Notes: a model not told the origin generated them from the letters alone. Shown: positions 9,472-24,724, counted from the stretch's first letter. The stretch: 32,000 bases of DNA from Oscillospiraceae bacterium (GCA_017527825.1 JAFXPO010000009.1:38738-70737); one strand, 5' to 3'. Numbers and translations: made by a program.

Positions 9472-11208
9472 ATGAACATGATTCAGAGCGCGAAGGATCA
9501 AATCGCCGAATTGACGAAACAGGCATACGCCGCCGCGGCTGCCGAGGGTCTGCTGCCGGAGGGCGTGGAGACGCCGGTGAACGTGGAGATTCCGAAGGAT
9601 ACCGCCAACGGCGACTATACGACGACGTTCTGCCTCGCCGCGGCGAAGGCGATGAAGAAAAGCCCCCGCGAGGTGGCGCAGGCGCTGACGGGCAAGATGG
9701 CGCTGGACGGCACATATTTTACAAGCGTGGAGATCGCCGGCCCCGGCTTCCTCAATTTCCGCCTCGGCGAGAAGTGGTACGCGGACGTGCTCGCCGCCGT
9801 GGAGAGCGAGGGGGAGACCTACGGCCGCTCGGCGGGGCTGACGGGGAAGAAGTACATGGTGGAGTTCGTTTCCGCCAATCCCACAGGACCGATGCACATG
9901 GGCAACGCCCGCGGCGGCGTGCTGGGCGACACGCTCGCGAGCGTGCTGGACTGGAACGGCGCGGACGTGGAGCGGGAGTTCTATGTCAACGACGCGGGCA
10001 ACCAGATCGAGAAGTTCGCCAAGAGCATCGAGGCGCGTTACTTCCAGCTCATCCGGGGGGAGGACGCGGTGGAGTTCCCGGAGGACGGCTACCACGGCGA
10101 CGACATCCGCGAGCTGGCGCGGCTCTTTTACGAGCAGCACGGCGAGAGCTATCTGAACAAGACCGTGGAGGAGCGCCACGCGGACATGGCGCGATTCGGG
10201 CTTGACCACAACCTGCCGAAGATGAAGAGCGACCTCGAACGCTACGGCATCCGGTTCGACACCTGGTTCTACGAGTCCACGCTCCATGACAGCGGCTTTG
10301 TGGCGGACTCGGTCAAGGCGCTGACCGACGCGGGCTGGACCTATGAGCAGGACGGCGCGCTGTGGCTCAGGACCGCCGACATCATCCGCGACAACCTGCG
10401 CAAGGCGGGGAAGAAAGAAGCGGACATTGAGAAGCTCGACCTCAAGGACGACGTGCTGCGCCGTGCCAACGGGTTTTATACCTACTTCGCCGCGGACATC
10501 GCCTACCACCGCAACAAGTTCGCGGTGCGCGGCTTCGACAAGGTCATCAACATCTGGGGCGCCGACCACCATGGTCATGTGGCGCGGCTCAAGGGATCGC
10601 TGGATGCGCTGGGGCTGGACGGCAGCGACCGCCTCGACATCGTGTTGATGCAGCTTGTGAAGCTGGTGCGCGACGGCGAGACGGTGCGCATGTCCAAGCG
10701 CACGGGCAAGGCGATCTCGCTTTCCGACCTGCTGGATGAAATTCCCGTGGACGCCTGCCGCTGGTTCTTCAACACCAAGCCCGACACGCAGATGGAGTTT
10801 GACCTCGGTCTCGCCGTCCGGGAGGACAGCGAGAACCCGGTCTACTACGTCCAGTACGCCCACGCCCGCATTTGCAGTCTGCTCAAGACGCTCTCGGACG
10901 AGGGACACACGGCGGGCAGGGGCGCGGATATCACGCTCGCGAACAGCGAACAGGAGCGGGAGCTGATCAAGGCGCTCTCCCGCTTCCCGGAGGAGATCCG
11001 CATGGCGGCGCGGGACTACGACCCCAGCTACATCAACCGCTATCTGGTGGAGCTGTCCGGCGCGTTCCACCGTTTCTACAATGCCTGCCGCATCAAGGGC
11101 GAGGCGGAGGACGTGATCGCCGCGCGTCTCGCGCTGGCGGAGGCGACCCGCCGCGTGATCGCCAACGGTCTCGGCATCCTGGGCGTTACCGCGCCGGCGA
11201 AGATGTGA
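9472..11208 (+). CDS. argS: arginine--tRNA ligase
   Basis: EIAGPGFLNFRL, SANPTGPMHMGNARGG (HIGH-type) and VRMSKRTGK (KMSK-type) motifs. Full length, 578 aa. Confidence 0.96.
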   Translation: MNMIQSAKDQIAELTKQAYAAAAAEGLLPEGVETPVNVEIPKDTANGDYTTTFCLAAAKAMKKSPREVAQALTGKMALDGTYFTSVEIAGPGFLNFRLGEKWYADVLAAVESEGETYGRSAGLTGKKYMVEFVSANPTGPMHMGNARGGVLGDTLASVLDWNGADVEREFYVNDAGNQIEKFAKSIEARYFQLIRGEDAVEFPEDGYHGDDIRELARLFYEQHGESYLNKTVEERHADMARFGLDHNLPKMKSDLERYGIRFDTWFYESTLHDSGFVADSVKALTDAGWTYEQDGALWLRTADIIRDNLRKAGKKEADIEKLDLKDDVLRRANGFYTYFAADIAYHRNKFAVRGFDKVINIWGADHHGHVARLKGSLDALGLDGSDRLDIVLMQLVKLVRDGETVRMSKRTGKAISLSDLLDEIPVDACRWFFNTKPDTQMEFDLGLAVREDSENPVYYVQYAHARICSLLKTLSDEGHTAGRGADITLANSEQERELIKALSRFPEEIRMAARDYDPSYINRYLVELSGAFHRFYNACRIKGEAEDVIAARLALAEATRRVIANGLGILGVTAPAKM

Positions 11209-11239
11209 AAAAAGAGCGGGGGCAAACCCCGCTCTTTTA
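11208..11239. terminator. bidirectional rho-independent terminator (argS / ybaB)
   Basis: AAAAAAGAGCGGGG-gcaaa-CCCCGCTCTTTT between convergent genes. Confidence 0.85.
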
Positions 11240-11305
11240 CTGTTCAGCCGCTCCTCCGCTGGAGCGGAGACGGAATTCAATGGGATACCGGTTCTTCCGT
11301 TCCCT

Positions 11306-11680
11306 TTACAGCCCCGGAATGTTGATCCCGCCGAGGTTGAACGCGCTCGTGAGGGCGTTCATGCTGGACTCCATCGCCTCGTCTGCCTGATGGATCGCCT
11401 CGTTGACCGCGGAGATCACCATGTCCTGAAGCGTCTCCACGTCATCGGGGTCGAGCACGTCGGGCTTGATGGTCAGCGCGGTGAGCTGCTTTTTGCCGCT
11501 GACCGTGGCGCTGACCGCGCCGCCGCCGACGCTGACGGAGAAGCTTTTCTCCTCTACCTCCTGCTGACGCTGCGCCATATCCTCCTGCATTTTGGCGATC
11601 TGCTGCTGCATGGCAGCCTGACGCGCGGACAAGCCGCCGCCGTTGGAGAATCCGCGCCGTGCGCTGTAACCCTTAGCCAT
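11306..11680 (-). CDS. ybaB: YbaB/EbfC family nucleoid-associated protein
   Basis: QQQIAKMQEDMAQRQQEVEEKSF..SVGGGAVSATVSGKKQLTALTIKPDVLDPDDVETLQDMVISAVNEA. Lies immediately downstream of dnaX, as is usual. Confidence 0.9.
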   Translation of the reverse strand: MAKGYSARRGFSNGGGLSARQAAMQQQIAKMQEDMAQRQQEVEEKSFSVSVGGGAVSATVSGKKQLTALTIKPDVLDPDDVETLQDMVISAVNEAIHQADEAMESSMNALTSAFNLGGINIPGL

Positions 11681-11695
11681 TGTTGTTTCCTCCTG

Positions 11696-13354
11696 TTATT
11701 TTACGGTAAAACCGCCGAATTTGCTGCCCATGCGGAGCAGGTCCTGCATTTTGTCGTGGTGATCGTCCGGCGCGTCGCCCACCTCAAAGCGCACCGTTAC
11801 CGGCTGCCCAACGGACTGCGCCACCAGCTCGCTGATGACAGAGACCACCGTGGGGTCGTCCAGACGGCTCTTGTGGATTTCGCTGGGACAGTAGACCGTC
11901 AGCGTACCGTCGCTCAGTACGCCGTGGGTCTTGCCGATGAACGAGCGCTTGTCCGGCGCGAGCCGGTTTTTGAAGTTCTCCATCAGGTCCGCGTACACCT
12001 GCGTGCTGCCCGCCGCGGGCGGGTCGGACACGGCGGGCTCCGCCGCGACCGGTTCCGCGCTTTGCGCCTCCGGCGCCGCGGGGACACCGACCGATTCACC
12101 ATAGGGCGGCGGACCGTCGTCCTCAAGGGGCGCGTCGTCCGGCGCGGGGATATCCGCGGGTGGCGCGGGAAGCTCCACCGCCGGCACGGCTGCCGCGGCG
12201 TAAGCCGCGCCCGCCGCCAGCCGTTCCTCCACGCGGGAGATGCGGGCGTTGATCGCGGCGAGGTCGCCGGACAGGCTCTCGTCGCACAGCCGCAGAAGGC
12301 ACAGTTCCGCGTCGGTGCGGCGGTTGACGCTGTTTTGCAGCGCCGCCGCGGTTTCCTGCAAAACCGTGCAGATTTGGATGAGACGCGCACTGGTGGCGGC
12401 TTTTTGCAGTGCGCCGAGCGTCCCGGCGTCGTAGCCGCCGCTGAGCAGCGCCGCGCCGCCCTCCGGCGCGGTGGACGAGATCAGCAGGTCACGCGAGAGC
12501 GTTGCCAGCTCGCCCAGCATCGCCTCCACGTCCTTGCCGCCGGTGTAGAGCTTGTGGAGCAGCAGAAGCGCCGCCTTGGCGTCGCGCTGCAAAATGAGCG
12601 CCATGAGCTGCGCGGTCTGCACGTTGCCCGCGAGACCCAGCGCGTCCAGCACAGCCCTTGCGTCAATCGCTCCGCCGGTGGCGGCGCACTGGTCGAGCAG
12701 GCTCAGCGCGTCGCGCAGCGCGCCGTCAGAGAGTCGCGAGAGCAGCTCCGCGCCGTCCGGGCGCAGGTCGATACCCTCCTGCTTCGCCACATAGTCCAGC
12801 CGCGCCTCAATGTCCCGCGGCAGGATGCGGCGGAACGCGAAGCGCTGGCAGCGCGAGAGGATCGTGGGCAGCACCTTGTGCAGCTCGGTGGTGGCGAGTA
12901 TGAACATCAAATGCTCCGGCGGCTCCTCCAGAATCTTGAGCAGCGCGTTGAACGCCGCGCCGGAGAGCATGTGCACCTCGTCGATGATGTACACGCGCTT
13001 TTTGACCTGCGCGGGAGCGTAGACCGCTTCGTCGCGCAACGCGCGGACGCTGTCCACGCCGTTGTTGGACGCGGCGTCCAGCTCGGTTACGTCCAGAAAC
13101 GCGCCGGAGTCGATGCCGAGGCAGGACGGGCAGCGGTTGCAGGGATCGCCGTTTTGCGGGTTCTCGCAGTTGACCGCCTTGGCGAGGATTTTCGCGCAGG
13201 TGGTCTTGCCGGTGCCGCGGGTGCCGGTGAAGAGGTAGGCGTGGCTCAGCCGCCCCTCGGCAACCTGCCGCCGGAGCGTCGAGGTGATATGCTCCTGCCC
13301 GACCACGTCGGAGAAGGTTTTGGGCCGCCACTTGCGGTAAAGTGCCTGATACAA
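11696..13354 (-). CDS. dnaX: DNA polymerase III subunit gamma/tau
   Basis: (M)YQALYRKWRPKTFSDVVGQEHI...GTRGTGKTTCAKILA...CNRCPSC. TTG start at 13354 sits 5 nt after AGGAGGTG. The 45-aa N-terminal extension in the track overlaps the SRP RNA and is rejected. Confidence 0.95.
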   Translation of the reverse strand: MYQALYRKWRPKTFSDVVGQEHITSTLRRQVAEGRLSHAYLFTGTRGTGKTTCAKILAKAVNCENPQNGDPCNRCPSCLGIDSGAFLDVTELDAASNNGVDSVRALRDEAVYAPAQVKKRVYIIDEVHMLSGAAFNALLKILEEPPEHLMFILATTELHKVLPTILSRCQRFAFRRILPRDIEARLDYVAKQEGIDLRPDGAELLSRLSDGALRDALSLLDQCAATGGAIDARAVLDALGLAGNVQTAQLMALILQRDAKAALLLLHKLYTGGKDVEAMLGELATLSRDLLISSTAPEGGAALLSGGYDAGTLGALQKAATSARLIQICTVLQETAAALQNSVNRRTDAELCLLRLCDESLSGDLAAINARISRVEERLAAGAAYAAAAVPAVELPAPPADIPAPDDAPLEDDGPPPYGESVGVPAAPEAQSAEPVAAEPAVSDPPAAGSTQVYADLMENFKNRLAPDKRSFIGKTHGVLSDGTLTVYCPSEIHKSRLDDPTVVSVISELVAQSVGQPVTVRFEVGDAPDDHHDKMQDLLRMGSKFGGFTVK

Positions 13355-13383
13355 GAGCGCACCTCCTACAAGACAGATAGAAT

Positions 13384-13520
13384 CCTCCGCGCTCTGCCAC
13401 GGAACCGGCGCCCTTGCGGCGCATGAATGGTCCCGCTTAATGCTGCTCGGTTCCCCGCCTGACATGGTTCGCGGGTATTCATCGCGCAAGACCGGTTCCG
13501 CAGCAGACTGCGGAGGACAA
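13384..13520 (-). ncRNA. ffs: signal recognition particle RNA (short form)
   Basis: Minus strand contains GAACCATGTCAGGCGGGGAACCGAGCAGCATTAAGCGGGACCATTCATGCGCCGCAAGG. This is near-identical in pattern to B. subtilis scRNA domain IV (GAACCAUGUCAGGUCCGGAAGGAAGCAGCAUUAAGUG...CAUGUGCCGCAGGG). Closing helix is CCTCCGC...CGGAACCGG / CCGGTTCCG...GCGGAGG. Conserved position upstream of dnaX. Ends are approximate (+/-5 nt). Confidence 0.85.
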
Positions 13521-13528
13521 CATCAGAT

Positions 13529-13557
13529 ATTTTACTATAGGTCGGCGAAAGATGCAA
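13529..13557 (-). promoter_or_regulatory. promoter of SRP RNA (and probably dnaX)
   Basis: Minus strand TTGCAT (13557-13552), 17-nt spacer, TAAAAT (13534-13529), about 8 nt before the predicted RNA 5' end. Confidence 0.6.
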
Positions 13558-13589
13558 CAGAAAAATTTTGTTTTTTTGAAAATCAGGGC

Positions 13590-13618
13590 TTTACAAATCG
13601 GAAAAACTGTGGTATTGT
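13590..13618 (+). promoter_or_regulatory. promoter of tRNA-Ala
   Basis: TTTACA (13590-13595), 17-nt spacer containing TGg, TATTGT (13613-13618). About 45 nt upstream of the tRNA. Confidence 0.55.
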
Positions 13619-13668
13619 ACTTGAGCTGACAAAAGAAACCGAAAGCGTCGGCGGCGAAAATAGAATAT

Positions 13669-13744
13669 GGGCCTGTAGCTCAGTTGGGAGAGCGTACGGT
13701 TCGCATCCGTAAGGTCGTGGGTTCGAATCCCTTCAGGTCCACCA
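13669..13744 (+). tRNA. tRNA-Ala (anticodon CGC), CCA encoded
   Basis: Cloverleaf by hand: acceptor GGGCCTG/CAGGTCC with G3:U70, D arm GCTC/GAGC, anticodon loop TTCGCAT (CGC at 13702-13704), T loop TTCGAAT. The T stem GTGGG/CCCTT has one U:U mismatch and one G:U pair. Confidence 0.9.
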
Positions 13745-13873: not shown

Positions 13874-15148
13874 TCAGCTCGAAACGGACTGGATAAACGC
13901 CTCCATACGCGCCGCGCTTGCCTGCTGCATCTGCGGTGTCACATGACCGTAAACGTCAAGCGTAAATGCAGCCGTGGCGTGACCGAGATTTCCCTGCACA
14001 GTCTTGATGTCGTCGCCGGACTGAAGAGCGGCAACGGCATAGCTATGACGCAAATCGTGCAGCCTGGCGTGCGGGAGACCAATCGCCTTAACGATCTTTT
14101 TGTAGTTGTCATAGACCGTATGCGGCGAAATCCGTTCTCCGAACTCATCGCAGAAGACAAACCCGTTGTCGTGCCACAAGGGCCCCGCCATCAACCGTGC
14201 CTCATTTTGCTGCGAGCGATGCTTGCGGAGCAGGTTGACAATAGTAGGTGCTGCCAGAATAGTGCGGCTTTTGCCGTTCTTTGTGGACACCAACTTCCAT
14301 TCGCCGGGGTGTCCCGGAACGTTTTGAAGCTGCTTATTGATCCGGATCGTGCCTTTGTCGAGGTTGATGCAATCCCACGTCAATCCGCAGGCTTCGCCTC
14401 GACGCATCCCCGTAAAGAGCATCACAAGAAAGATCGTCTCGTACTTGTTACCCTTGATGGCATTTGTAAACTCAGCAATGTCATTGGCGTCCAACGGCAC
14501 GATCTCCTTGCGCTCAACGCGAGGCAGCTCACAAGCATCAGTGGGGTTGAAGCGGATATATCCGACTTTGACAGCCTGCTGCAGAGCACGATGGAGAACA
14601 CCGTGGATGTTTTTAATCGTCTTTGCGGACAGGGGTGCGGTGTTCTCGTAGACGATTTTGCCATCCTTACGGATTGCCTTGCCGTCTTTATCATGCTTGG
14701 GAACCAACATGCCCTCTTTTGCGAGACTGTTGTAGAAGCCTTGAATCACATGAGGATGCAGCGCATCCAGACGAATCGCTCCGAGCGCGGGATTGATATG
14801 GTTTTTGATATTCGCGGAATAGCTGAGAACGGTATGCGGTTTGACGGATACAAGGTAATCTCGCTCCCAGATTTCCAGCCACTCGCGCAGGGTCATCTTG
14901 CAAGGCTCGATATACTGATCCGTATCAATTTCGGTTGTGAACTGGCGAAGTTTCTGAGCCACTTCCTTCTGCGTCTTGCCCGTGACGGACTTCTGTATCT
15001 GTTTTCCCGTTCCGGGATCGAAGCCGGTCGTATACCGAGCTTCCCAATAGGTGTATTCTTTCCCATTGCGCTTCACGGTCTTCTTCCGGATGGTCCCGGC
15101 GCCGGAAGCGCCTTTTGTATTTTTCGCGTTGCTTTTGCCGCGCGGCAT
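13874..15148 (-). CDS. int: tyrosine site-specific integrase (phage/ICE type, with arm-binding N-terminus)
   Basis: N-terminus KEYTYWEARYTTGFDPGTGKQIQKSVTGKTQKEV. C-terminal catalytic region LFTGMRRGE...HDLRHSYA...LGHATAAFTLDVYGHV. ATG at 15148 is 8 nt after AGGAGG. Confidence 0.93.
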   Translation of the reverse strand: MPRGKSNAKNTKGASGAGTIRKKTVKRNGKEYTYWEARYTTGFDPGTGKQIQKSVTGKTQKEVAQKLRQFTTEIDTDQYIEPCKMTLREWLEIWERDYLVSVKPHTVLSYSANIKNHINPALGAIRLDALHPHVIQGFYNSLAKEGMLVPKHDKDGKAIRKDGKIVYENTAPLSAKTIKNIHGVLHRALQQAVKVGYIRFNPTDACELPRVERKEIVPLDANDIAEFTNAIKGNKYETIFLVMLFTGMRRGEACGLTWDCINLDKGTIRINKQLQNVPGHPGEWKLVSTKNGKSRTILAAPTIVNLLRKHRSQQNEARLMAGPLWHDNGFVFCDEFGERISPHTVYDNYKKIVKAIGLPHARLHDLRHSYAVAALQSGDDIKTVQGNLGHATAAFTLDVYGHVTPQMQQASAARMEAFIQSVSS

Positions 15149-15170
15149 AGTCAAAACCTCCTTTCGCGCC

Positions 15171-15238: not shown

Positions 15239-15430
15239 TTACCTTGAAAGGTATTCCGCGACTGCCTCCTTGGGCACGCGGATGTTTCTCCCGACGCGGA
15301 TGCTGCGGATCTGACCGCTGCGCACCAGCTCATACGCCGTGTTGCGCCCAATGCAGAGCACGGGCATCAGGTCCTCGACCTTCATCACGAGTGGAAGGTC
15401 GTTGATCGAACAATACTTCTTTTCGTCCAT
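15239..15430 (-). CDS. xis: excisionase-family / MerR-like HTH DNA-binding protein
   Basis: 63 aa: LMPVLCIGRNTAYELVRSGQIRSIRVGRNIRVPKEAVAEYL. Position immediately upstream of int. GGAGGG RBS. Confidence 0.75.
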   Translation of the reverse strand: MDEKKYCSINDLPLVMKVEDLMPVLCIGRNTAYELVRSGQIRSIRVGRNIRVPKEAVAEYLSR

Positions 15431-15441
15431 GGCGGCCCTCC

Positions 15442-17433
15442 TTATCTCGCGTCATAGTCACGGGGCTTTTTCTTCGGAGGGTGGTAGTTCTCCTCCAGAA
15501 CGCCCATGATCTCGGATTGCATCTTCTTCGGCGTGTACCCTGCCGGAAACAGCGGACGCAGTCGGTCCATCGGCAGCGAGAGCCGCTCGCGCTGGTTCGG
15601 CTTTTCTTCTGCCATGATCTCCTCAATGCCGCTCTCGGTGAGGGCAAAGAGCCTCTCGTCGCACATCCTGTGCATCCGCACCGCCTGAGAATAGGACGGC
15701 GTGGCGTCGTACAGCTCGATTGTGTCAACGAGGTGCTTTTGCAAACGCTCCGGCAGGAACGAAAGCTCCACGCCGACCGAGAACGCGATGCGCTTCGTGT
15801 CCACCATGTCCAGCAGCGCGGGGATGAGATGGGTCAGACGGATATAGCGTAGAACCTGATTTTTGCTGTCACCGCTTTCCATGCCGATCAGCTCGACGGT
15901 CAGCAGCTTCTCCCCGAGTTGGGGAGAAGCTGCTCCTTGATGAGCGAGCGCGTCGCGCTTCAGCTTGTAGGCAAAAGCCTTTTCGCTCGGCAGGATGTGC
16001 TCACGGTGGAGGTTGCTGTCCACCAACTCGATGGCCGCCGCGTCGCGGTCCACGGCATGAATAAAGGCGGGGACGGTATCCACCCCTGCCTTCTGCGCGG
16101 CGTGGAGTCTCCGATGTCCGGAGATCACCTCATATTCATCGGTCGTGCCCTCCAACGGGCGAACGATCAGCGGCGACATAACGCCGTGTTTCCGGATGCT
16201 CTCGGCGATCTTCCGCTTGGTCGCCTCCTCGACCTCCTTGGGCTTGGGACGGCGGAGCGTGTTGCGGCAGAGCTGACGCTCATGCTCCAGCTCCTTGATC
16301 TTCGTCTCGGTTTTCGTGATGAACTGGGACAGGTCCTCCGGCGTGTGGATTTCGTTTTCCGACATGAGCATATACGCCGCGTGGAGCTGGTCAAAGCGTT
16401 CCAACTCGGCGCGGACAGACGGCGAGAGCGGGCGGAAGGAGACCTCGCCCTCCTGTTCCTCGCGTGTCAGCTTCACCATCTGCAAAATGATGAAGAACAC
16501 CACATCGACGAGAACGGTCACGGTGTCATGGGAGTGCATGATCTCATAATCCAGCCTCCGCTCCATCTCCAACAGCGGGAAACGCTTCGGGCGATATGGC
16601 AGGTTGCTGTTCCAGCCGTGCAGCGCAGCGGGGTCATACAGGTTTATCCTGATTCTCTCCTGAATGACCTCGTAGGTGAAGCCGAGCCGGTCGAGGCGAA
16701 TGCCGCGTTCCCAGTCCGGCGCTTTCACCGTGCCGCGCTGCCAGTCGTACTCGTAGCCCTTGGCTCGGAGCTGCGCAATCACATCATCGAAGCGCATGGC
16801 ATAACGCATACTGTCCTCGACGTCGCGTTTCAGCATGGCGCGGTGCGTCAGCTTGCCCTGCTTCTCCGCCCAATACGCGCCGCGACTCTTTCCACCGAAG
16901 AATGTCGCTCCCTCCAGGACGGAGAGCTGGCGCTCGCGGCAGATCGCGTCGGAGATCTCGCGCAGGTGGATGTGGTCGCGGATGTGGTTTTGGAACTTCT
17001 TGCCATCCTTATAGGAAACGGCATTGACCACCATGTGATTGTGGATCGTGCCCGTGTTCAGATGCGTCGTGACAAGCACCTGAAAGCGGTCGCCCCACAT
17101 CTGCTTGGCGGTCTCGATGCCGATGCGGTGCGCCTCCTCCGGCGTGACCTCTCCGGGCTTGAAGCTCTGATACCCGTGGTAGGCGACGATCTGGCCCTTC
17201 AGCCCGAAACGCTTTTGCACCGCCGCCATATCCTCGTAGGCGTGCTCCGCCGTGCAGTGGACACCGGTGACGAAAAGTCGCTGGTCGGTCTTGTCGTCGT
17301 TCTCTGCATAGCGAAGCACCTGGGCGAGATCGTCGTCCAGGTACTTCGGGTTCGTGGTCTTATCCGGATTGTCGGCGTAGGCGATGACAGCGCCGAGCGA
17401 GCTGCGCACGGGCCAGAAGCCGGTGGTTGCCAT
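15442..17433 (-). CDS. relaxase/mobilization nuclease fused in frame to a ParB-like N-terminal (ParB/Srx) domain and its C-terminal region
   Basis: aa 1-390: relaxase features (VAYHGYQSF, THLNTGTIHNHMVVN His triad). aa ~405-663: IAESIRKHGVMSPLIVRP...YEVISGHRRLHAAQKAGVDTVPAF...VDSNLHREHILPSEKAFAYK...QVLRYIRLTHLIPALLDMVD. This is typical of stand-alone ParB-like proteins of clostridial mobile elements. Confidence 0.88.
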   Translation of the reverse strand: MATTGFWPVRSSLGAVIAYADNPDKTTNPKYLDDDLAQVLRYAENDDKTDQRLFVTGVHCTAEHAYEDMAAVQKRFGLKGQIVAYHGYQSFKPGEVTPEEAHRIGIETAKQMWGDRFQVLVTTHLNTGTIHNHMVVNAVSYKDGKKFQNHIRDHIHLREISDAICRERQLSVLEGATFFGGKSRGAYWAEKQGKLTHRAMLKRDVEDSMRYAMRFDDVIAQLRAKGYEYDWQRGTVKAPDWERGIRLDRLGFTYEVIQERIRINLYDPAALHGWNSNLPYRPKRFPLLEMERRLDYEIMHSHDTVTVLVDVVFFIILQMVKLTREEQEGEVSFRPLSPSVRAELERFDQLHAAYMLMSENEIHTPEDLSQFITKTETKIKELEHERQLCRNTLRRPKPKEVEEATKRKIAESIRKHGVMSPLIVRPLEGTTDEYEVISGHRRLHAAQKAGVDTVPAFIHAVDRDAAAIELVDSNLHREHILPSEKAFAYKLKRDALAHQGAASPQLGEKLLTVELIGMESGDSKNQVLRYIRLTHLIPALLDMVDTKRIAFSVGVELSFLPERLQKHLVDTIELYDATPSYSQAVRMHRMCDERLFALTESGIEEIMAEEKPNQRERLSLPMDRLRPLFPAGYTPKKMQSEIMGVLEENYHPPKKKPRDYDAR

Positions 17434-17705
17434 TACCCGTCCCTCCCCGGCGAGATCACCGTCTCGCGCAGGGCGTCGAGCACCTCGAGCACAGCGGCCC
17501 CGTTGTCAGCGTTCCGTACGGCGTCAAGCTTGTCGCAAAGCTCATAGAAGGCATCGGGAGGGATGGCGCGGGGCTCGTAGCCGAGACAGCGTTGACGGGC
17601 GTATTCGGAGAGTTCCAGACCGCATCTCTTGGCGAAGCGGAGGACTCTCTCTTTTTCGGCAGGTGTCACACGGAGCGCGATCCGCGCGGTCTTGTTATCA
17701 TTCAT
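17433..17705 (-). CDS. mobC: MobC-family relaxosome accessory protein
   Basis: MNDNKTARIALRVTPAEKERVLRFAKRCGLELSEYARQRCLG. TAATG overlap with the relaxase start. ATG at 17705; the track's upstream extension crosses hairpins and is rejected. Confidence 0.8.
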   Translation of the reverse strand: MNDNKTARIALRVTPAEKERVLRFAKRCGLELSEYARQRCLGYEPRAIPPDAFYELCDKLDAVRNADNGAAVLEVLDALRETVISPGRDG

Positions 17706-17737
17706 TATAAATTTCAACCTCTCTTTCATGCAGGGGA

Positions 17738-17985
17738 TTGGGGGCGCAGCCCCCAAAGAACGAGCCGCCCATCGGCGGCTCTGAACCGGAGTTTGTCGAA
17801 CAAACTCCCTGCTGGTTATTCTCTTAGACACCACCCCTATAGGGCGTGGATGGTTCAGTCGGGCGGTGTCGCGGGCGTTTCTTCAATGGTCGGATAGTTC
17901 GGAGCGTTCTCCTTTTCTGATGGCACCTGCACGGTGCCATCAGCGGGGGAGGCATCAGGGAAAGGCACCGTGGCGGTGCCATCAG
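17738..17985 (-). other. hairpin and repeat cluster; candidate oriT and/or centromere-like site
   Basis: Three consecutive perfect hairpins: TGGGGGC-gca-GCCCCCA (17739-17755), GAGCCGCC-catc-GGCGGCTC (17762-17781), GGAGTTTGT-cga-ACAAACTCC (17788-17808). Imperfect 19-bp palindrome at 17831-17849. CTGATGGCACC-tgcac-GGTGCCATCAG at 17917-17943, with GGTGCCATCAG repeated at 17975-17985. Located directly upstream of mobC-relaxase. Confidence 0.35.
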
Positions 17986-18305
17986 AAGAATTCGTCGAGC
18001 GCAGCCAGCGCCGCCGCCTGATTCGCCTCCTGCTCCTCCGGCGTCAACTCGGTCAAGCCGTCGGCGCTTGCTTCGACCAGCTGAGAAACGGTACGTGGAA
18101 GGCTTTGCAACTCATCGCGGATGACTTGCCGGAGCATTTCAACCAAACCTGCGGCATCTACGCCGCCGTTCATGCGGGCGGCAATCGCCTCGATGACGAA
18201 GCGGTTGCGGGAGCCGCGCTTCATGCCGCGCAAAAATTCGGCGGCCTGCCGTTCCACTTCGTTTCTTGTGTCAAAGCGGACGTTGAATCGGTAGTCGGTC
18301 ATCAT
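17982..18305 (-). CDS. ribbon-helix-helix-like small protein, candidate ParR-type adaptor
   Basis: YRFNVRFDTRNEVERQAAEFLRGMKRGSRNRFVIEAIAARM fits a strand-helix-helix pattern. ATGATGA overlap with the parM stop. No family recognised by sequence. Confidence 0.5.
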   Translation of the reverse strand: MMTDYRFNVRFDTRNEVERQAAEFLRGMKRGSRNRFVIEAIAARMNGGVDAAGLVEMLRQVIRDELQSLPRTVSQLVEASADGLTELTPEEQEANQAAALAALDEFF

Positions 18306-19222
18306 GCTTTCCCCGCCTTGATCTGAAGCTCCGCTAGATACTCATAGCCCTTGGCGGCGGCGCAGATGTCGTCCACGAACTTTACGCGCTCGGTGTTGAA
18401 GCTGTAGAAGTGCTTCACGAGGCAGCCGCCTCCGCCCGTGATGTAGAGCGTCATGGTGCCCTCGTCGTACCCGTGATCCCGCAGCCGATGGAAGATTTCT
18501 TCCACATACCCGGAAGCGGCATCACAGATGATGGCGAGATCGCTTTCCCGGATGTTTGCCGTACCAGTGCGGAACACCTCTTCGATGATGGCGTCGTTCA
18601 GCTCACGCTGCGTCCGACGCATGAACGCCTCGCGCACGGCGAGCGTACACTGGTGGACGCCGAACTTCTCCGTGAACATCTTCCCGGACTGAGGCTTGCC
18701 GTTCACAAGGTATAGCACATTCATCGTACCGTTGCCGATGTCCGCGACGAGATTCAGCCCCCTGAGCTTCGTCGCAAAGGGCGCGACGGCGGCGTATCCC
18801 TGCGGATAGACCTTCACGCCGGCGATGTGGATGTGATAGTCCTGTTTTCTGTAGGTGAAGCGAACATCCTCGTTCCGGCTGAGGTACTTGGCGAATTTGT
18901 CCTTCTGCCCGGATGTCCAGGTCAGCGGCAGACCGACGGCAAGGAAAACGTTTGCCTCCGTCAGATGCGCGTCCGCCAGCTCACAGGCGATAGCGGCGAA
19001 CGTCAGAAGATAGTAGTCGTCGTCCATGACCTTATCCGGCAGGAACTCCTTGTGCCCTTCACCGATGAGGTAGTAGCGTCCCTCATAGACCAGCATATCG
19101 CCGGTGAAGAGCGGTTCGGTGTCGGAGCCGATGATGCCGGTCGGGAAGCAGTGGTTTGCGGTTTTGATGTTGCCATAGCCCTGGTCCACGGCAATGATCT
19201 TGATTCCGTTCATGTCTTTCAT
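18302..19222 (-). CDS. parM: ParM/StbA-family actin-like segregation ATPase
   Basis: IIAVDQGYGNIKT (phosphate 1), LVADIGNGTMNV (phosphate 2), TLYITGGGG (adenosine motif). 306 aa. Confidence 0.85.
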   Translation of the reverse strand: MKDMNGIKIIAVDQGYGNIKTANHCFPTGIIGSDTEPLFTGDMLVYEGRYYLIGEGHKEFLPDKVMDDDYYLLTFAAIACELADAHLTEANVFLAVGLPLTWTSGQKDKFAKYLSRNEDVRFTYRKQDYHIHIAGVKVYPQGYAAVAPFATKLRGLNLVADIGNGTMNVLYLVNGKPQSGKMFTEKFGVHQCTLAVREAFMRRTQRELNDAIIEEVFRTGTANIRESDLAIICDAASGYVEEIFHRLRDHGYDEGTMTLYITGGGGCLVKHFYSFNTERVKFVDDICAAAKGYEYLAELQIKAGKA

Positions 19223-22158: not shown

Positions 22159-22476
22159 ATGATCTGCTTCTTCATTGGGCACCGTAATGCTCCTGAGGCA
22201 CTGCGCACGCTATTGGAAAAAGCGGTGGAACGGCATATTACCGAGTGCGAAGTGACTGAGTTTGTTGTCGGGCACTATGGACGTTTTGACTATATGGCGG
22301 CAGGTGCTGTCAGGGCGGCAAAAAAGCGCCACCCGGAGGTAACGCTTACGTTGCTTCTGCCGTATTATCCGTTTTTGCATGATACATCCGATTATGACCG
22401 GACCTATTATCCGGAAGGTTTGGAAACCGTGCCGAAGCCCTATGCCATCATTCGAGCGAATCAGTATATGGTACGG
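22159..22476 (+). pseudogene. SLOG/DUF1273 (YpsA-like) family gene, 5' fragment, interrupted by IS21-family element
   Basis: MICFFIGHRNAPE...VVGHYGRFDYMAAGAV...PKPYAIIRANQYMVR, then reads into the IS terminal repeat (C, stop). Confidence 0.7.
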
Positions 22477-22666: not shown

Positions 22667-23932
22667 ATGAAAGCGGAACAGGGGAAAAACTTTTCCCTGG
22701 AGCGGATCAATCTGGCCGAGTTGGAGCGGCGCACGGGCGTTTCCCGCGCAAGGCTCAGAAGACTGAAGGCAAACAACTACCAAGTCAAGCCTCACGCTTC
22801 CAAGGGCAAACGCCCCAAGGCAACCGTCCTGAGCGGCTATTCCGCTGTCTTGGATGCCCTGCTGACACAGGGGATAGCGAATTCATCCGTACTTCTCCAG
22901 CGGTTGCAGGCAGAGGGTTATACCGGAAGCCTGACGACGGTGAAGCGGTATATCCAGAGCCACCGCTCACTTATCCCTGCAAAACGTCAGCTCGTCGCGC
23001 CGCAAGGCAGCCGCGGAAGCAGATACACTACGGCGCCCGGAGAAACTTACCAGATGGACTGGGGCTTTACAAAGGTGGCAGATTACACCGGGAACGAATT
23101 TCAGGCAGCTTGCTTTGCCGTGATCTGCCACCACTGCGGACAGCGGTATATTGAGTTCTTTCCCAACGCCAAGCAGGAAAATCTCTTCATCGGGATGATC
23201 CACGCGTTTCGCTACATGGGTGTGCCTCGGTATGTCCTGACGGACAACATGAAGAGCGTGGTGATTCGGAGAGACTTTTCCGGTTTCCCAATCTGGCAGA
23301 AAGACTATGAGGCTTTTATGGGTACGGTGGGCTTCCAAACGAAGCTCTGCAAACCCAGGCATCCGTTTACCAAAGGAAAAGTGGAGCGGCTCGTCCGCTT
23401 CGTGAAGGAAAACTTCCTCGCCGACCGGGCATTCTGGAACGTGACGGATTTGAACCGCGCCGCGCTGGAATGGTGCAACAGGCAGAATACAGTCTACCAC
23501 CGTGCATTAGGCTTCGTTCCGCAGGAACTGCATCTTACGAACTGCGCCGCCAGCCTCTCACAGCTGGAGGACAGCCTTTCCCTGCGGTTCTATCTCGCCC
23601 CAGAGCGGAAGATCTCGTTCGATGGTTTTATCAATTACGAGGGGCGGCGTTTTGGCGTACCATACAGCTACCGAGGTAGCACCGCCCGTATCGCGCGGGA
23701 AGACGATATGATCTACATCTACTCGGCCGATGCGCGGGATCTGCTTGCCACCTACGAGGTAACATGGTCCAAGCGGGACCGTTTCTGCAAGGACCAGTAT
23801 CTGGATGTACGCCAGCCCGAGGAGTTTCCCACGGCGCCTGTCCGAACCACCATGACCATGCTGGAGGAACCCAAGCAAGACCTGACCTTTGACAAGTTTG
23901 ACTTCGACAAGGGGGTGGTCTGGGATGAATGA
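22667..23932 (+). CDS. istA: IS21-family transposase IstA
   Basis: HTH INLAELERRTGVSRARLRRL. DDE region YQMDWGF...VLTDNMKSVV...RHPFTKGKVERLV. 421 aa. Confidence 0.92.
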   Translation: MKAEQGKNFSLERINLAELERRTGVSRARLRRLKANNYQVKPHASKGKRPKATVLSGYSAVLDALLTQGIANSSVLLQRLQAEGYTGSLTTVKRYIQSHRSLIPAKRQLVAPQGSRGSRYTTAPGETYQMDWGFTKVADYTGNEFQAACFAVICHHCGQRYIEFFPNAKQENLFIGMIHAFRYMGVPRYVLTDNMKSVVIRRDFSGFPIWQKDYEAFMGTVGFQTKLCKPRHPFTKGKVERLVRFVKENFLADRAFWNVTDLNRAALEWCNRQNTVYHRALGFVPQELHLTNCAASLSQLEDSLSLRFYLAPERKISFDGFINYEGRRFGVPYSYRGSTARIAREDDMIYIYSADARDLLATYEVTWSKRDRFCKDQYLDVRQPEEFPTAPVRTTMTMLEEPKQDLTFDKFDFDKGVVWDE

Positions 23933-24116
23933 GCCCGTATTTGAACGTGTGGAGCGGTGTAGCGATATCCTCAAGCTGGATTTTTCCTCTGCCGAGTTGG
24001 CACATCTTGCCGAGGAGCATGAACTCTCACCCGAGGCTGTGGATGCGATTGCATTGGTTTTTGAGATCTCTCCGCCAAGAAAACGGAGACGACGATCCAG
24101 ACAATCCTCAAGATGA
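23925..24116 (+). pseudogene. istB: IstB N-terminal segment, in a different reading frame from the ATPase core
   Basis: MNEPVFERVERCSDILKLDFSSAELAHLAEEHELSPEAVDAIALVFE resembles the helical IstB N-terminus. ATG overlaps the istA stop (ATGAATGA). The frame ends at TGA 24114-24116, while the core continues in the -1 frame. Confidence 0.55.
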
Positions 24117-24724
24117 GCAGGCTGCCGCTGAAAGATCCGAAGACCTTTGAGACCTTTGATTTCTCTGTGATAAAGGGGAAAGATGTGGAGCGGCTCAAGG
24201 CGCTGCCATCCCTGTCCGCCATCTACGCGCATAAAAATCTTGCCTTCATCGGGCCTGCCGGTACCGGGAAAACGCATCTTGCGCAGGCTTTCGGCTTTGA
24301 ATGCTGCAAGCATGGCATGAAGACGTACTTCATAAAAATGTCCGAGTTGCGAGACAAGTTTACCGCCGCCAGGCGAACCGGCAAGGAGGCGTCCGCTCTG
24401 ACCAGCCTCGTCAGGCCGTCCTGCCTGATTATTGACGAGGTGGGACACTGCGAGTTTGACAAGGCGAATACGCGGCTGTTCTTTGACCTCATTGACCGCC
24501 GGTACAACAAGGAAGGCCCATACAACACCATCTTCACCAGCAACAAGAACCCTGCGCTCTGGCGGAGCAACTTTAACGAGGACGATGCGCTGCTTTGCGC
24601 TCTGGACCGTATTTTTGACGACGCGACCGTGTTTAAGATCCGTGGCGAGAGCTTCCGTGGAAAGAAGTTGGAGACGGTGGCGCTGCAAACCGGCAGAGTA
24701 AAGACAAATGAACCAAGCGAATAA
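24113..24724 (+). CDS. istB: IS21-family helper ATPase IstB (AAA+ core)
   Basis: KTFETFDFS, Walker A FIGPAGTGKTHLA, Walker B CLIIDEVG, IFTSNKNP. The frame is open upstream to 24065 (DLSAKKTETTIQTILK). Confidence 0.88.
   Translation: MSRLPLKDPKTFETFDFSVIKGKDVERLKALPSLSAIYAHKNLAFIGPAGTGKTHLAQAFGFECCKHGMKTYFIKMSELRDKFTAARRTGKEASALTSLVRPSCLIIDEVGHCEFDKANTRLFFDLIDRRYNKEGPYNTIFTSNKNPALWRSNFNEDDALLCALDRIFDDATVFKIRGESFRGKKLETVALQTGRVKTNEPSE

Follow-up and report, generated by a model that had tools for sequence, protein, structure and literature searches.

The relaxase–ParB gene

The window analysed here is a stretch of 32,000 nt from an Oscillospiraceae bacterium (GCA_017527825.1, JAFXPO010000009.1:38738-70737), to which all coordinates refer unless another contig is named. 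It carries a minus-strand operon that comprises, in this order, a Cys-rich VLP gene, a ParM-like ATPase gene, a 107-aa gene, a NikA/MobC-like gene, a chimeric relaxase–ParB gene, an HTH_17 excisionase gene and a tyrosine integrase gene. The chimera occupies positions 15442-17433 of the minus strand and was listed as one open frame of 663 aa. Pfam Relaxase (PF03432) matched residues 42-170 over its whole profile (positions 1-132 of 132) with an E value of 8e-37 and 126.9 bits against a cut-off of 24.6, and ParB_N (PF02195) matched residues 395-467 with an E value of 7.5e-16 and 58.4 bits against a cut-off of 26.3. NCBIfam agreed with Pfam, reporting parB_part above its cut-off together with weak relaxase models. 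The composition that a first-pass annotation of this DNA had read from the sequence, a single 663-aa ORF with a MobA/VirD2 relaxase followed by a ParB domain, was thus confirmed, and both motifs it had quoted were found in place, THLNTGTIHNHMV at residues 123-135 and GHRRLHAAQKAG at residues 439-450.

The relaxase-derived part was delimited by breakpoint mapping to codons 1-408 (16209..17433, minus strand) and shares 95% identity with P0001, a stand-alone relaxase of 459 aa; in BLASTP, 389 of 411 residues were identical and the alignment stopped at residue 411. Its His-triad motif (17029..17067, minus strand) lies within the Pfam Relaxase match and is intact, the triad HLNTGTIHNH at residues 124-133 being conserved in an alignment of 108 relatives. 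The conserved Y19 (YADNP) is also present and is a candidate for the catalytic tyrosine.

The ParB-derived part consists of residues 412-663 and the stop codon (15442..16200, minus strand), which correspond to residues 34-285 of the intact protein in an alignment with the ParB genes of the related contigs L001 and L004, and it shares 96% nucleotide identity with the ParB fragment of contig L005. Two conserved boxes were retained, namely the Box II or P-motif 2 equivalent formed by the second quoted motif (16084..16119, minus strand), which aligned to GERRxRA of Noc, and the Box III or P-motif 3 equivalent DSNLHRE at residues 472-478 (16000..16020, minus strand), which aligned to ENLQRE of Noc. 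Within them, the phosphate motifs aligned to Noc as GHRR at 439-442 (Box II GxxR) and SNLHRE at 473-478 (Box III NLxRE). The beginning of the domain is absent, since the ParB_N match was limited to profile positions 17-86 of 95, whereas that of the intact L001 ParB begins at position 5.

The integrated element and its flanks

Upstream of the chimera in the same operon lie the ParM-like actin ATPase gene (18302-19222, minus strand; Pfam ALP_N, E 8e-14) and its 107-aa partner gene (17982-18305, minus strand), an order shared with contigs L001-L003 and L024-L025. They are followed by the gene for a NikA/MobC-like relaxosome accessory protein (17433..17705, minus strand; Pfam NikA-like, E 3e-14), which was called at 90 aa in L001, L024 and L025 and whose stop codon overlaps the chimera start in the sequence TAATG. 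Directly after the chimera come the HTH_17 excisionase-like gene (15239..15430, minus strand; Pfam HTH_17, E 5e-10) and the tyrosine integrase gene (13874..15154, minus strand; Pfam Phage_integrase, Phage_int_SAM_3 and Arm-DNA-bind_4). On the integrase side the element is bordered by a tRNA-Ala(CGC) gene (13669..13744, plus strand) recognized by ARAGORN and Rfam tRNA, beyond which lie the SRP RNA and then dnaX. The opposite flank holds a DUF6076 gene, a sigma-70-like gene, an IS21 copy and a type I restriction-modification operon.

Among the genes of the element in the window there was neither a coupling protein nor a secretion ATPase, and the element was therefore classified as an integrative mobilizable element (IME). 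Coupling-protein homologues are encoded on two other contigs of the host genome (C11 and C44), and the chimera is the sole PF03432 relaxase of that genome. Likewise, no ParA domain was detected in the genes of the element, the operon containing the actin-like ALP_N gene instead. A second copy of the tRNA-Ala 3' end, which would mark the far end, was sought in the window with no match, and the list of direct repeats held no convincing candidate; the right end lies either outside the window or is hidden by the IS21 insertion. This IS21-type insertion (rve transposase and IstB ATPase, 22667-24724) is located between the regulatory genes of the element and the type I restriction-modification operon, and it may obscure the far end.

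The intergenic stretch at 17706..17981, between the ParR-like gene and nikA, contains two GGCACC-N5-GGTGCC palindromes and CTGATGGCACC repeats, assigned to repeat family D6 and annotated as a candidate oriT and/or centromere. These palindromes and repeats were kept in L001 and were absent from the sister-clade contigs L026, L029 and L011, the elements that are devoid of them including those devoid of ParM/ParR. On this distribution, the stretch may serve as oriT, as centromere or as a site where ParB loads.

Origin of the fusion

The closest proteins to the chimera, sought in a collection of 5.8 billion sequences, were stand-alone 459-aa relaxases, the best of them 95% identical with an alignment ending at residue 411. 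At the DNA level, related elements with 88-96% nucleotide identity carry separate genes for a 459-aa relaxase and a 282-285-aa ParB that overlap by 4 nt (ATGA), ParB being in the -1 frame relative to the relaxase. This split arrangement is the ancestral one, and it was found on four syntenic relatives (L001, L003, L004 and L005), where the ParB gene is followed by the same excisionase and integrase genes and, in L001, the same dnaX neighbourhood as well. In the 90% cluster that includes the chimera, most members are likewise separate proteins of 459 aa or 285 aa.

Alignment to separate relaxase and parB neighbours, which the first-pass annotation had proposed for mapping a deletion junction, revealed the event itself. 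Between positions 22476 and 13665 the window is collinear with L001 at 88-90% nucleotide identity with a single gap, and a breakpoint scan against L005, L001 and L003 fixed the size of this gap at 242 nt. In L005, the closest relative, two copies of TCGCCGAG lie 242 nt apart and bound the stretch deleted in the window, where one copy of this 8-bp microhomology remains as the deletion junction (16201..16208). In the protein alignment the junction reads KRKIA|ESIR. The deletion removed the last 48 residues of the relaxase (VTDQ...KERNRSR) and the first 33 residues of ParB (MKDYINIEISRLHAFKGHPYKVLDNEEMDALAE). Because ParB was in the -1 frame and 242 equals 2 modulo 3, the loss placed both genes in one frame, and the chimera measures 663 aa against about 740 aa for a complete fusion of the genes of its own clade (459 and 285 aa).

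The proposal that a deletion had fused two formerly separate genes is consequently borne out by the split syntenic relatives and the 242-nt gap, and the deletion origin of the chimera is near certain. Several details had to be revised. The switch to ParB, placed previously near residue 405, lies at 411/412 in the protein alignment, and the DNA junction lies at 16201-16208 instead of 16220-16250. The ParB start is indeed missing, but the mapped loss is 33 residues, fewer than the 40-50 that had been estimated, and the loss of the last 48 relaxase residues, evident from the alignment and the breakpoint mapping, had not figured in the earlier account at all.

The course of events is simple. In the ancestral mobilization operon, the genes of the 459-aa relaxase and the ParB of about 285 aa overlapped by 4 nt, and a 242-nt deletion took away 48 relaxase codons, the stop/start overlap and 33 ParB codons. 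A loss between 8-bp direct repeats is the mark left by slippage during replication or by microhomology-mediated deletion. A split progenitor at least 99% identical to the chimera was not present among 40 cluster members that were compared, the nearest being about 95% (relaxase) and about 94% (ParB) identical.

L001 carries the same element at the same site beside dnaX (window 11000-13665 compared with L001:9300-13565), the host flanks being about 86% and the element 88-90% identical. This shared site fits either a long residence since the divergence of the hosts or repeated site-specific insertion.

The allele in public assemblies

The source genome is a draft of 51 contigs, which leaves room for the suspicion that the two genes are truly separate and that 242 nt were lost by mis-assembly or misplaced binning. 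However, 7 public contigs, among them contigs of two different metagenome samples, encode an identical 663-aa protein flanked by the same genes. One of these is a 158-kb scaffold from one metagenome sample (L024) with 0 differences from the window over 7992 nt, and another is a 27.6-kb contig from another sample (L025) with 2 differences in the same 7992 nt; their contig names suggest different assembly pipelines. In addition, the 8-bp repeat is far below the k-mer length of assemblers and would not be expected to cause a collapse. Considering the identical chimera on independent contigs and a repeat probably too short to mislead an assembler, the allele was taken as real, and an artefact is very improbable.

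The copies of the allele are near-clonal, with 0-2 differences in about 8 kb, which dates the event as recent. The allele is at least tolerated, since its 663 codons contain no interruption and more than one sample harbours it.

Segments lost and their likely consequences

To the relaxase, the deletion cost a C-terminal tail whose conservation (0.55) equals that of the rest of the C-terminal half and which ends in a conserved basic tip. Considering that the catalytic domain is complete and most of the helical region was kept, nicking at oriT is probably still possible.

The ParB half was affected in a different place. The intact ParB of the element is a ParB/Noc-type protein, as it matched Noc, ParB and Spo0J in sequence at E values of about 1e-15, and in fold the ParB part of a full-length fusion model matched Noc, ParB and KorB over the N-domain and the HTH at 3e-10. 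In the Noc alignment, the deleted head has GHPYK opposite FQPRT, and the HP(Y/F) motif it contains is conserved across 21 ParB family representatives and aligns with phosphate motif 1 (QPR in Noc), the head as a whole being conserved at 0.44 against 0.71 for the domain core in the same representatives. In an AF2 model of a full-length fusion with 57% identity, the residues equivalent to the deleted ones fold into two short strands and make up the greater part of the Box I helix. In Caulobacter ParB, Q58 and R60 form P-motif 1 and the substitution R60A abolishes CTP binding (PMC8367383). Without its first strands and its HP(Y/F) motif, the nucleotide-gated N-terminal clamp is therefore probably disabled, and what remains of ParB, its DNA-binding and C-terminal parts, would form a tail of the relaxase. 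The cost of the lost segment is nevertheless not certain, because this ParB family has Y or F where canonical ParB has the CTP-binding Arg. The chimera also keeps the S and G of the cytosine motif (ESIRKHG), Box II, Box III, the HTH and the C-terminal region, and the retained cytosine-motif residues and boxes would, from their sequence, weigh against a loss-of-function reading. An AF2 model of the chimera itself was of low confidence and contained helices in the remnant of the ParB N-domain, the MAFFT input having misaligned residues 412-447 to relaxase tails, which left these residues with no ParB signal in the alignment and makes the model uninformative as to misfolding of the remnant.

Comparison of the window with L001 revealed purifying selection on both gene parts (omega about 0.15), a value that reflects mostly the history before the deletion. 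In the same comparison (window 15442-17433 and L001:5266-7499), dS was 0.56 in the relaxase part and 0.29 in the ParB part, a difference of about 2-fold, which suggests that recombination may have occurred within the operon.

Taken at face value, the chimera is a recent deletion allele in the mobilization operon of an IME, probably neutral to deleterious for mobilization and carried vertically in one host lineage, and we regard this reading as likely. That the chimera is impaired and not adaptive is held with less assurance, as the side to which the balance inclines.

Full-length fusions in a sister clade

The same two families are joined in the same order in a sister clade, in proteins of 735-741 aa with both domains complete (P0011 and P0400, 741 aa; P0007, 735 aa), within elements that encode NikA, the relaxase–ParB protein, a small ORF and a recombinase. 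They share 47% of the relaxase residues and 57% of the ParB residues with the chimera. Comparison of the fused genes (L029:3001-5226, L012:6000-8225 and L011:8001-10208) with the split genes of L026 and L027 (3001-5236) traced the fusions to the loss of single bases from A-runs shortly ahead of the relaxase stop codon: an A is missing from TTAAAACAAG in the lineage of L029 and L012, an allele present on at least 13 contigs from several samples, and one A from GGAGAAAAAAGC in the lineage of L011. The two lineages represent independent events. The fusion cluster also contains a split 455-aa relaxase on many contigs. In contrast to the window chimera, the product of a 242-nt deletion that shortened both partners at the junction, these single-base fusions retain the whole ParB with its own Met and the HPF motif, and the change of frame costs the relaxase no more than about its last 13-20 residues.

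The position of these fusions, at A-runs near the relaxase stop codon of two genes whose overlap in the unfused arrangement is out of frame, could recall programmed recoding, in which ribosomal frameshifting or transcriptional slippage would normally yield the fused proteins and a fusion in the DNA would simply fix a natural product. The base is absent from the DNA itself in the fused contigs, though, and on inspection the A-runs were only 4-6 nt long and out of register with a canonical X XXY YYZ slippery site, so that programmed frameshifting was ruled out as the source of the fusions; the event in the window is moreover a 242-nt deletion with no slip. Recoding in any form is hardly credible here.

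Two further chimeras of the same operon family, found on public metagenome contigs, arose by deletion. In P0128 (348 aa), relaxase residues 1-120 are joined to ParB at EYEV|VSGHRR, and the His triad was lost because the junction follows residue 120; in P0283 (407 aa), ParM residues 1 to about 150 are joined to ParB at the SPLIV strand.

These relatives bear on the question of whether the window chimera could be a functional, selected fusion, in which the ParB DNA-binding module tethered to the relaxase aids the assembly of the relaxosome or its delivery at oriT. A functional tethering had been the alternative named in the first-pass annotation. The frame of the chimera is intact and its allele occurs in at least two samples, the relaxase and ParB are translationally coupled already in the split state, the omega of about 0.15 between the window and L001 speaks of purifying selection on both genes, and the sister clade holds two other independent full-length fusion events, one of them on at least 13 contigs, a persistence which indicates that tethering is compatible with the persistence of the element. 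Partition proteins have also been reported to interact with relaxases or to stimulate transfer elsewhere (PMC8716806, PMC4949242, PMC12421886). Against this stand the near-clonal copies, which do not indicate persistence under selection, and the fact that a random deletion at this place would be in frame one third of the time. Furthermore, conserved parts of both partners are gone from the chimera whereas the full-length fusions retain the whole ParB, the same operon also gives rise to clearly dead chimeras such as P0128, and the split form is dominant among the close relatives. A selected function is accordingly considered unlikely, and the chimera is better seen as the recent, neutral to deleterious deletion allele described above.

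Relation to known systems and a possible relaxase–ParB partnership

In its relaxase half, the chimera resembles the MobA/VirD2 (PF03432) relaxases of Clostridia IMEs in the full Pfam match, the His triad and the upstream NikA-like gene, and its operon likewise ends in an excisionase and an integrase beside a tRNA. It differs from the 459-aa relaxases in having 252 ParB residues in place of their last 48, which contain the conserved basic tip.

The ParB of the element is related to the CTP-dependent DNA clamps ParB, Noc and KorB (7NFU, 6SDK, 6T1F, 8QA8) in sequence and fold, with GxRR and NLxRE motifs. Unlike these clamps, it is accompanied by a ParM-like ATPase in place of a ParA partner, and its P-motif 1 is HP(Y/F), not QPR, across the family of element ParB proteins, a motif that was deleted together with the preceding strands in the window chimera.

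Published cases are known in which ParB-like or partition proteins switch on transfer genes or bind to either the relaxase or the oriT region, namely ParA and ParB of the gonococcal island with TraI, ParM and ParR of R1 with TraI, ParB and ParR of NAH7, and BisD of ICEclc (PMC8716806, PMC4949242, PMC12421886, PMC12409273). By analogy, these cases offer a plausible role for a ParB gene that follows the relaxase gene. They concern separate polypeptides of Proteobacteria, and their resemblance to the ParB of the element is only a lead.

Recurrent independent fusions of a relaxase with ParB constitute indirect ('Rosetta stone') evidence that both proteins work together, and they point to a direct relaxase–ParB partnership in Gram-positive mobilizable elements that has hitherto been uncharacterised. 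In these elements of gut and rumen Clostridia, the relaxase and a ParB-fold protein form a translationally coupled, conserved pair that has been fused at least three separate times. A more far-reaching version would make the ParB a dedicated relaxosome partner, a ParB-fold DNA clamp that would load close to oriT and there either pass on the relaxase or hold it in place, and the three fusions functional single-chain versions of this pair. If this were true, the nucleotide gate of ParB and the tail of the relaxase would be dispensable once the two are covalently tethered, but we consider this version improbable and put it forward as speculation.

By itself, the window chimera is a mutational scar, of use chiefly because it illustrates so cleanly how microhomology can mediate an in-frame fusion of genes in nature. 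Together, the natural split, fully fused and truncated-fused alleles provide material for testing the partnership.

Occurrence of the architecture and other ParB fusions

The fused architecture is rare. A search of 200 further genomes from the family of the host gave many adjacent relaxase and ParB genes, all of them split, and no single match that spanned both. Among 72,556 PLSDB plasmids there was likewise no relaxase–ParB fusion, 0 of 1616 matching records covering 80% of the query in one place. Relaxases are not mentioned as fusion partners in a 2025 survey of ParB-CTPase-fold fusions and its available supplements, where many other partners are listed. The earlier remark that the architecture was not known to have been described agrees with this survey and with the plasmid search, in which the two parts never occurred in one place. 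The chimera is built from two known families, and no earlier description of a PF03432–PF02195 fusion was found in the literature that was searched.

Members of the same ParB family were seen fused to other partners elsewhere, including a MobV (Mob_Pre) relaxase, a TraG/VirD4-type coupling protein, ParA ATPases, serine recombinases and tyrosine integrases. These proteins (e.g., P0285, P0344, P0286 and P0270) form mostly single-member clusters and may be either frameshift errors or genuine, sporadic fusions of ParB to the gene that happens to adjoin it. In the host genome of the window, contig C44 (33880-36321) carries a coupling-protein homologue about 500 nt from a ParB paralogue that is 45% identical to the ParB part of the chimera, neighbours that echo the fusion of ParB with a coupling protein in P0344.
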